Origin: Escherichia coli
GTDB taxonomy: Bacteria; Pseudomonadota; Gammaproteobacteria; Enterobacterales; Enterobacteriaceae
Length of the DNA: 64,000 nt
NCBI RefSeq assembly: GCF_003334305.1
Contig: NZ_QOWS01000007.1
Strand: one strand, 5' to 3'
Within the stretch, counting starts at the first letter, position 1, and every line of letters starts with the position of its first letter. The notes below the pieces were generated by a model that was not told the origin of the DNA, did no database searches, and saw nothing but the letters and a program-made list of their open reading frames with translations. Shown piece after piece: positions 915 through 1,068 of the stretch. Position numbers and translations under genes: made by a program.

Positions 915-968
915 GTGCCGGATGTTTTGTCGGATGCGGCGTGAACGCCTTATCCGAACTACGTCCGA
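915..968. repeat. REP (repetitive extragenic palindromic) element in purC-bamC spacer
   Basis: GCCGGATG...CGGATGCGGCGTGAACGCCTTATCCG...CTACG motif typical of enterobacterial REP sequences. Confidence 0.5.
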
Positions 969-1015
969 CAAACAAATTTCGTGCGAATTACCGCTAAAAT
1001 CGCGTTTTCCTGCCG

Positions 1016-1031
1016 ACGCACACGTTTGCGT
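1016..1031. promoter_or_regulatory. PurR operator-like palindrome upstream of purC
   Basis: acgcacacgtttgcgt matches the PurR box consensus ACGCAAACGTTTGCGT at 15/16 positions. Confidence 0.5.
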
Positions 1032-1039
1032 ATCATATC

Positions 1040-1068
1040 AGAAAAAAGGGCCGGATGATTCCAGCCCT
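1040..1068 (-). terminator. rho-independent terminator downstream of bamC
   Basis: On the minus strand, a GC-rich hairpin (agggctgg/ccggccct) is followed by a T6 run immediately after the bamC stop. Confidence 0.5.

Follow-up and report, generated by a model that had tools for sequence, protein, structure and literature searches.

Operators of the Escherichia coli pur regulon (purF, purL, purMN, purHD, purEK and purT) are 16-bp imperfect palindromes of the ACGCAAACGTTTGCGT type that lie at the promoters of purine genes and are occupied by PurR in vivo. Each pur operator is said to have been described, in 1990, as overlapping its own promoter. Many PurR sites are positioned between the -35 and -10 elements (Cho et al. 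2011), and at purB and purR the sites lie far downstream of the transcription start and block elongation as roadblocks (He and Zalkin 1992, as cited in another paper). The purC operator differs from both arrangements, as it follows the -10 element and spans -6 to +10. It shares with the purB and purR operators the binding of PurR downstream of the start. However, because the purC box overlaps the start site itself, a block of initiation would be expected, unlike the roadblocks at those two genes.

For the REP element that follows the purC promoter, the closest described systems are REP325 and the BIMEs. REP325 (naRNA4) of the yjdM-yjdN operon is built of 12 palindromic units, lies between cistrons or in a 3' UTR, and has demonstrated activity in both termination and stabilisation. 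The purC-leader element, REP181 of K-12, belongs to the same repeat family but is a single unit located in a 5' leader. It also shares its y-type REP, with a 5' GTAG, with the BIMEs; a BIME comprises two inverse REPs and a linker, whereas only one REP is present at purC.

The DNA studied here was a 64,000-nt stretch (the window), which is E. coli chromosome: of 5,426 complete E. coli genomes, 5,406 matched a 261-nt query from it across 80% or more of the query, with identities of 96.9-100%. The features annotated beneath these matches were bamC and purC, and both the ORFs and the K-12 MG1655 annotation gave the tandem order dapA, bamC, purC on the minus strand. All coordinates below are window positions on the minus strand unless given otherwise, and equal the NC_000913.3 coordinates minus 2,596,756. 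Compared with K-12 MG1655, the window falls short by a net 167 nt somewhere within 1100..20655; a yfgD-like ORF starts at 20655 where 20822 was expected, and the purMN PurR box is shifted by the identical amount.

The purC promoter, operator and repressor occupancy are textbook knowledge and the REP is catalogued; the control region, transcription start, PurR binding and REP were thus all previously on record, with each component belonging to a known family. A sequence-only reading of the window had assigned positions to a bamC terminator, a PurR box, a REP and the purC start codon, and all four features were located there, each above chance. Our overall interpretation, which we consider probable, is of a classical E. 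coli purC control region in which control is exerted at transcription initiation and the REP is likely a tolerated passenger.

Terminator, promoter and operator

The intrinsic terminator of dapA-bamC (1041..1068) begins 7 nt past the bamC stop codon, a TAA at 1077..1075 that agrees with the K-12 annotation. A pattern scan delineated a hairpin (1068..1047) of nine pairs, six of them G-C, with the loop AUCA, followed by UUUUUU(C) to 1041. Its predicted fold had an energy of -16.1 kcal/mol (z = -4.16), a stability that no sequence among 200 shuffles equalled. When 20 orthologous enterobacterial spacers were aligned, 95.9% of the cells were paired at these columns, compared with 21-59% when the 3' partner columns were slid. 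In addition, two pairs showed covariation, with seven cells changed on both sides, and none of 500 shuffles attained the covariation score. This G+C-rich hairpin with a U-run after a stop codon therefore has a structure that has been maintained in evolution, and the terminator that had been proposed at 1040..1068 is upheld by its fold and by its compensatory changes. Transcripts of dapA-bamC would be expected to end here.

The PurR operator occupies 1016..1031 (both strands) and reads ACGCAAACGTGTGCGT on the minus strand and ACGCACACGTTTGCGT on the plus strand. It matches the consensus at 15 of 16 positions, as the sequence-only reading had claimed, and is the sole match with at most one mismatch in the 64 kb; no such match arose in 100 shuffles. 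Genome-wide ChIP-chip in K-12 found PurR enrichment at purC (log2 2.08 with adenine and 1.52 without), assigned to the motif ACGCACACGTTTGCGT at 2,595,794-809 (Cho et al. 2011). The box in the window is the same 16-mer in the same place, so that the expectation of PurR binding at 1016..1031 agrees with published occupancy. A box with at most one mismatch also stood right after the terminator in 25 of 79 loci encoding BamC upstream or PurC. The element is thus a near-consensus palindrome with a central CG, found at the start site of a purine gene and conserved among orthologous loci. A second PurR box in the window, TCGCAAACGTTTGCTT at 24195..24210, has two mismatches to the consensus and is the purMN operator, identical to the purM-purN motif of Cho et al. 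(2011).

The sequence-only reading had the PurR box following the terminator immediately, and this detail did not hold. Nine bases (1040..1032) separate the terminator U-run from the box, and the purC promoter has its extended -10 element there, TGaTATGAT, read from the sequence and lying at a fitting distance from the published transcription start. Citrobacter, Pseudocitrobacter, Pluralibacter UBA7423 and RIT691 all have the string CTGATATGAT unchanged. No -35 element could be recognised at this promoter; the place where it would lie is taken up by the terminator hairpin, namely its loop and 3' arm. A consensus promoter scan found no -35/-10 pair and reported no promoter in the purC control region, because the promoter has no usable -35. 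This negative scan was set aside, and the promoter call rests on the mapped start together with the extended -10.

The transcription start itself, an A at 1025, was transferred from K-12. Kim et al. (2012, PLoS Genet, Table S1) mapped primary 5' ends genome-wide in K-12 from exonuclease-enriched 5'-triphosphate RNA, and the purC row of that table places the start at 2,595,803 on the minus strand (old coordinates) with a 5' UTR of 163 nt, on the basis of 24 reads in one data set from a single growth condition. The accompanying promoter string ends in ...CTGATATGATACGCAAA / ...TTTTTTCTGATATGATACGCAAA. The start corresponds to window position 1025, inside the PurR box and 7 nt past TATGAT. From the bamC stop codon through the whole of the PurR box, the window has the K-12 sequence, and the mapping can therefore be transferred. 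The promoter has the TGn motif and near-TATAAT hexamer of an extended -10 sigma-70 promoter, and its start lies within the 6-8 nt downstream that are expected of such promoters. In the available portions of the supplements of Adams 2021, Conway 2014, Ettwiller 2016, Yan 2018 and Mendoza-Vargas 2009, no second record of a transcription start or a 3' end was found for purC.

These positions define a 5' untranslated leader of 163 nt (863..1025). The sequence-only reading had reasoned that a promoter overlapping the PurR box would yield a leader of about 150 nt that includes the REP, and the published start inside the box bears this out. The leader ends in a good Shine-Dalgarno sequence, AGGAG (875..871), separated by 8 nt from the purC ATG (862..860; the two together span 860..875). 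The ATG at 862, as proposed, matches the ORF list and the K-12 annotation, and the coding sequence runs to 149. The segment 852..918, comprising 56 nt of leader and the first 11 nt of purC, is invariant in nine of ten Escherichia sequences, E. albertii among them, and is C-rich and G-poor.

A start downstream of the REP would have placed the REP outside the main leader. A promoter producing most purC mRNA from there has a weak candidate in CAGACA (912..907) and GTTAAT (889..884), with a spacer of 17 nt, and the invariance within Escherichia of the 67 nt before and around the ATG could be taken to favour it. However, the candidate -10 lacks the essential A at position 2 and was missed by the consensus scan, and such a promoter would escape the PurR operator, while a roadblock from upstream cannot work. 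In the rows of Kim et al. (2012) available, no start is listed at the candidate or anywhere between the REP and the purC ATG (including about 870..915), and the rows neighbouring purC are 2,595,047 and 2,597,255. We regard this explanation as extremely improbable.

We are highly confident of the architecture of the purC control region, with its start at 1025. In the mechanism that we propose, the terminator U-run is followed at once by an extended -10 element without a -35, and RNA polymerase would start at 1025. The operator covers -6 to +10; therefore, bound PurR occupies the start site and the DNA to be melted. With its corepressor, hypoxanthine or guanine, PurR would be expected to block initiation by steric means. 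Any transcript reading through from bamC would probably also meet bound PurR as a roadblock.

The REP element and its hairpin

The purC leader contains a single y-type REP in the purC-sense orientation, with its core at 929..962 and its 5' GTAG at 962..959. It reads GTAG followed by TTCGGATAAGGCGTTCACGCCGCATCCGAC (962..929, minus strand). A search pattern was derived from GTAGGACGGATAAGGCGTTTACGCCGCATCCG, the REP whose crystal structure includes its transposase, and the element had no mismatches at the specified positions of that pattern. A manual count against the crystallised REP gave 29 matches in 32 positions, and comparison with the classical consensus gave 31 of 34. The palindrome is about 35 nt, CGGATAAGGCG...CGCCGCATCCG, with a conserved internal mismatch. 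An outer stem (970..964 with 922..916) encloses the REP to form a composite hairpin of 55 nt (916..970), predicted to fold at -26.3 kcal/mol (z = -5.3). The sequence-only reading had given the REP as 915..968, and the outer stem accounts for this wider range.

The supplement of a preprint by Harris et al. (2026) lists REP181 in the tandem pair bamC/purC at 2,597,674-2,597,719, which corresponds to 918..963. The NC_000913.3 record has no repeat features of any kind over 49 kb, and the missing REP annotation there is therefore uninformative. Searched with a 28-nt word, the 261-nt query had hits at a median of six places in each E. coli genome; the single additional location displayed coincides exactly with the REP (query 139..173, window 962..928). 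The element thus has a 5' GTAG at the foot of its hairpin, an imperfect palindrome and many dispersed extragenic copies, as expected of a y-type REP.

A BIME was considered for this element and rejected, as there is one REP and the sole inverted repeat is formed by the arms of that REP. The only trace of a second copy nearby was an octamer resembling a REP head, GCCGGATG, at 917..924. On the plus strand, GCCGGATG(T/A)TT, which begins with this REP head motif, occurs both at 917..927, in the outer flank of the REP, and at 1050..1060, in an arm of the terminator, probably by chance. A riboswitch or attenuator of the curated structured type was likewise considered and rejected. No Rfam family scored above threshold in the purC leader, naRNA4 being sub-threshold at 915..959 (30.9 bits, compared with a gathering score of 59.5), and no compensatory changes were found in the leader hairpin.

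The pattern search identified three REP copies in the window. A BIME-like pair lies at 21046..21137 between convergent yfgD-like and hda-like ORFs, and its second REP, GTAGTTCGGATAAGGCGTTCGCGCCGCATCCGAC (21104..21137, plus strand), is one base off the purC-leader REP. Harris et al. (2026) list REP182 between yfgD and hda. A third copy, GTAGGCCGGATAAGGCGTTTACACCGCATCCGGC, is located at 57785..57818 in the gap between the minus-strand ORFs 56909..57694 and 57827..59197.

An insertion in the Escherichia leader

To place the REP in an evolutionary context, the bamC-purC spacer was compared in one genome per species with PurC (80 loci, none from Salmonella). In 25 other enterobacterial species, the same terminator was followed directly by a box with at most one mismatch, and none of the 25 had a REP. 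The genera with this arrangement include Citrobacter, Enterobacter, Pseudocitrobacter, Phytobacter, Leclercia, Pluralibacter, Cedecea and Kluyvera. The spacer was 106-112 nt in 19 of the 25 species, with a leader of about 61 nt and the box at -65 to -69 from the ATG, and 117-173 nt in the other six. Only in Escherichia was the spacer 211-212 nt, with the box at -168 or -169 and the REP present. These were three loci of the set (E. coli, E. albertii and the locus L003), and the same held for the window, for K-12 and for six diverse strains of E. coli.

Alignment with Citrobacter, Pseudocitrobacter, Pluralibacter and RIT691 indicated that about 100 nt had been inserted into an ancestral leader of about 61 nt in Escherichia. 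The segment carrying the REP (909..980) is missing from the short leaders of the other genera. On either side of it lies one copy of an imperfect direct duplication, comprising about 31 nt of the ancestral leader that are single-copy in Citrobacter. The promoter-proximal copy, CAGGAAAACGCGATTTTAGCGGTAATTCGCAC (981..1012), aligns to the Citrobacter leader, and the Shine-Dalgarno-proximal copy, CAGCAAAAGATTTTAAAACGTTAATTCACAC (878..908), was identified by local alignment with the first (score 22, attained by one of 2000 shuffles); the two are spaced 103 nt from start to start. A further resemblance was observed between CACACCAGACAG (916..905, partly overlapping the second copy) and the Shine-Dalgarno region CACACCCAGGAG (882..871).

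From the flanking duplication, it follows that the promoter-proximal and Shine-Dalgarno-proximal ends of the old leader both survive. REP181 belongs to a stretch of about 100 nt that the Escherichia lineage has gained by insertion, and the duplication left the contexts next to the promoter and next to the ribosome site both intact. The addition of the present analysis to what was on record is small: by comparison of the spacers, the REP arrived with this Escherichia-specific insertion and its flanking duplication of about 31 nt. Target duplications are not among the products expected of the single-strand chemistry that has been proposed for REP transposases. We consider it unlikely, taking both parts together, that the duplication records an unrecognised insertion route of single REPs and that the insertion is more than a passenger.

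Unrelated inserts were found at the same position of the leader in Kluyvera, Enterobacter sp. BIGb0383, Siccibacter and Shimwellia, and the site therefore tolerates insertions. The Kluyvera and Enterobacter sp. BIGb0383 inserts (loci L018 and L021), about 60 and 30 nt upstream of purC, respectively, share GA(A/C)GACG(A/G)CGAGTATC. Those of Siccibacter (L031) and Shimwellia (L030) are small and palindromic.

The distribution of the REP among genera also bears on whether it serves the upstream operon, by trimming and stabilising its transcripts or by acting as a back-up terminator of dapA-bamC read-through, its location in the purC leader being incidental. Such a function is the customary one for REPs on the 3' side of genes, where they are mostly found; tandem gene pairs with a REP show upstream-biased expression, and REP181 lies 113-148 nt past the bamC stop codon on the same strand. 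However, bamC transcripts already have a strong and conserved intrinsic terminator at their end, read-through would be halted by bound PurR as well, and the relatives of Escherichia do without the REP. An upstream role is, in our estimation, decidedly unlikely.

Possible effects of the REP on purC expression

The sequence-only reading had suggested that a REP hairpin in the leader could affect mRNA stability or translation. Within Escherichia, variation is concentrated in about 919..1015, and E. coli and E. albertii differ by about 17% in the REP-bearing middle, whereas the terminator, promoter, operator and last 67 nt are essentially invariant, E. albertii included. The hairpin is kept in all ten Escherichia sequences, with predicted energies of -17 to -20 kcal/mol in the most distant compared with -27 to -31 kcal/mol. 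None of its pairs was altered on both sides in these ten sequences. Selection on the REP at the RNA level was considered and dropped: C-to-U changes leave G-U pairs in some strains, but double changes were absent, and the two strands did not clearly differ in stability.

The REP was predicted to fold on its own. The predicted energy of opening the ribosome site was 6.5 kcal/mol with the hairpin and 6.4 kcal/mol with the hairpin deleted, compared with 6.4-8.0 kcal/mol for ancestral-like deletions and 7.2 kcal/mol for Citrobacter, these being thermodynamic predictions that leave RNase E scanning, pausing and Rho unaddressed. The lack of covariation, the unchanged opening energy and the faster divergence of the REP segment than of its flanks, as judged from sequence comparison and modelling, lean against a strong effect of the REP on purC mRNA stability or translation. 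Nevertheless, the REP has reached fixation in E. coli, and it was present before E. coli and E. albertii split and has been kept since; this retention is compatible with some benefit.

Instead of being a passenger, the hairpin in the purC-sense leader could be a working post-initiation element, as a pause or partial Rho-dependent attenuator that reduces purC expression, or as an obstacle that stabilises the mRNA. Under the published obstacle model, a hairpin of this kind could hinder the 5'-end-dependent scanning of RNase E, and the one at purC is stable (-26 kcal/mol) and retained across Escherichia. The leader distal to the REP (+91 to +150) is C-rich and G-poor, with a C/G ratio of 2.57. 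REPs have been reported to act as partial Rho-dependent terminators and as stabilisers, and an in-vitro Rho-binding peak at 2,597,592-2,597,725, equivalent to window 836..969, overlaps REP181 by 45 nt (Harris et al. 2026). However, that peak is classed as purC 5' UTR, antisense, with the rut strand given as plus; it is only weakly enriched (log10 0.61 in the absence of NusG, 0.46 in its presence) and coincides with no bicyclomycin-sensitive transcript. Short fragments comprising 2-4 REP hairpins were also not Rho-dependent in that study, and the available part of the 5'-UTR 3'-end tables of Adams 2021 has no entry for purC. Together with the missing covariation in the hairpin and the faster evolution of the REP segment, this makes a post-initiation role rather unlikely, in our view.

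The strand assigned to the Rho-binding peak raises the alternative that the element acts on the plus strand, where it would either terminate antisense transcripts from within purC or act as their Rho-loading site, and so spare the purC promoter and bamC. On that strand the hairpin is the more stable (-28.1 compared with -21.7 kcal/mol), and a hairpin with TTTTGT after it is present at 907..924. Nevertheless, the base composition of the peak is the same on both strands (C/G of 1.0 on either) and leaves its strand undecided, and the terminator-like match is weak, having three G-C pairs in a region that gave three such matches compared with 0.6 expected in shuffles. The rows of Kim et al. (2012) that were available list no plus-strand start nearby. 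An antisense role therefore appears highly improbable.

The most likely state of the locus is thus one in which the REP is a tolerated passenger and alters purC expression modestly at most. That the element is near-neutral is, in our view, somewhat more likely than not, on the strength of the comparisons within Escherichia and with its relatives and of the predicted opening energies of the ribosome site.

The locus offers a clean natural test, as the same promoter and operator are followed by a leader with or without a REP in closely related genera. The comparison of leaders bears on a single REP in a 5' UTR, whereas studies of REPs have focused on 3' UTRs and this position has mostly been ignored. 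If the REP hairpin did work as a control element, purC would be controlled at a second level in Escherichia but not in other enterics. The REP-bearing insertion would then be an Escherichia-specific second step in the control of purC, acting through Rho-dependent attenuation in the leader or through protection from RNase E.
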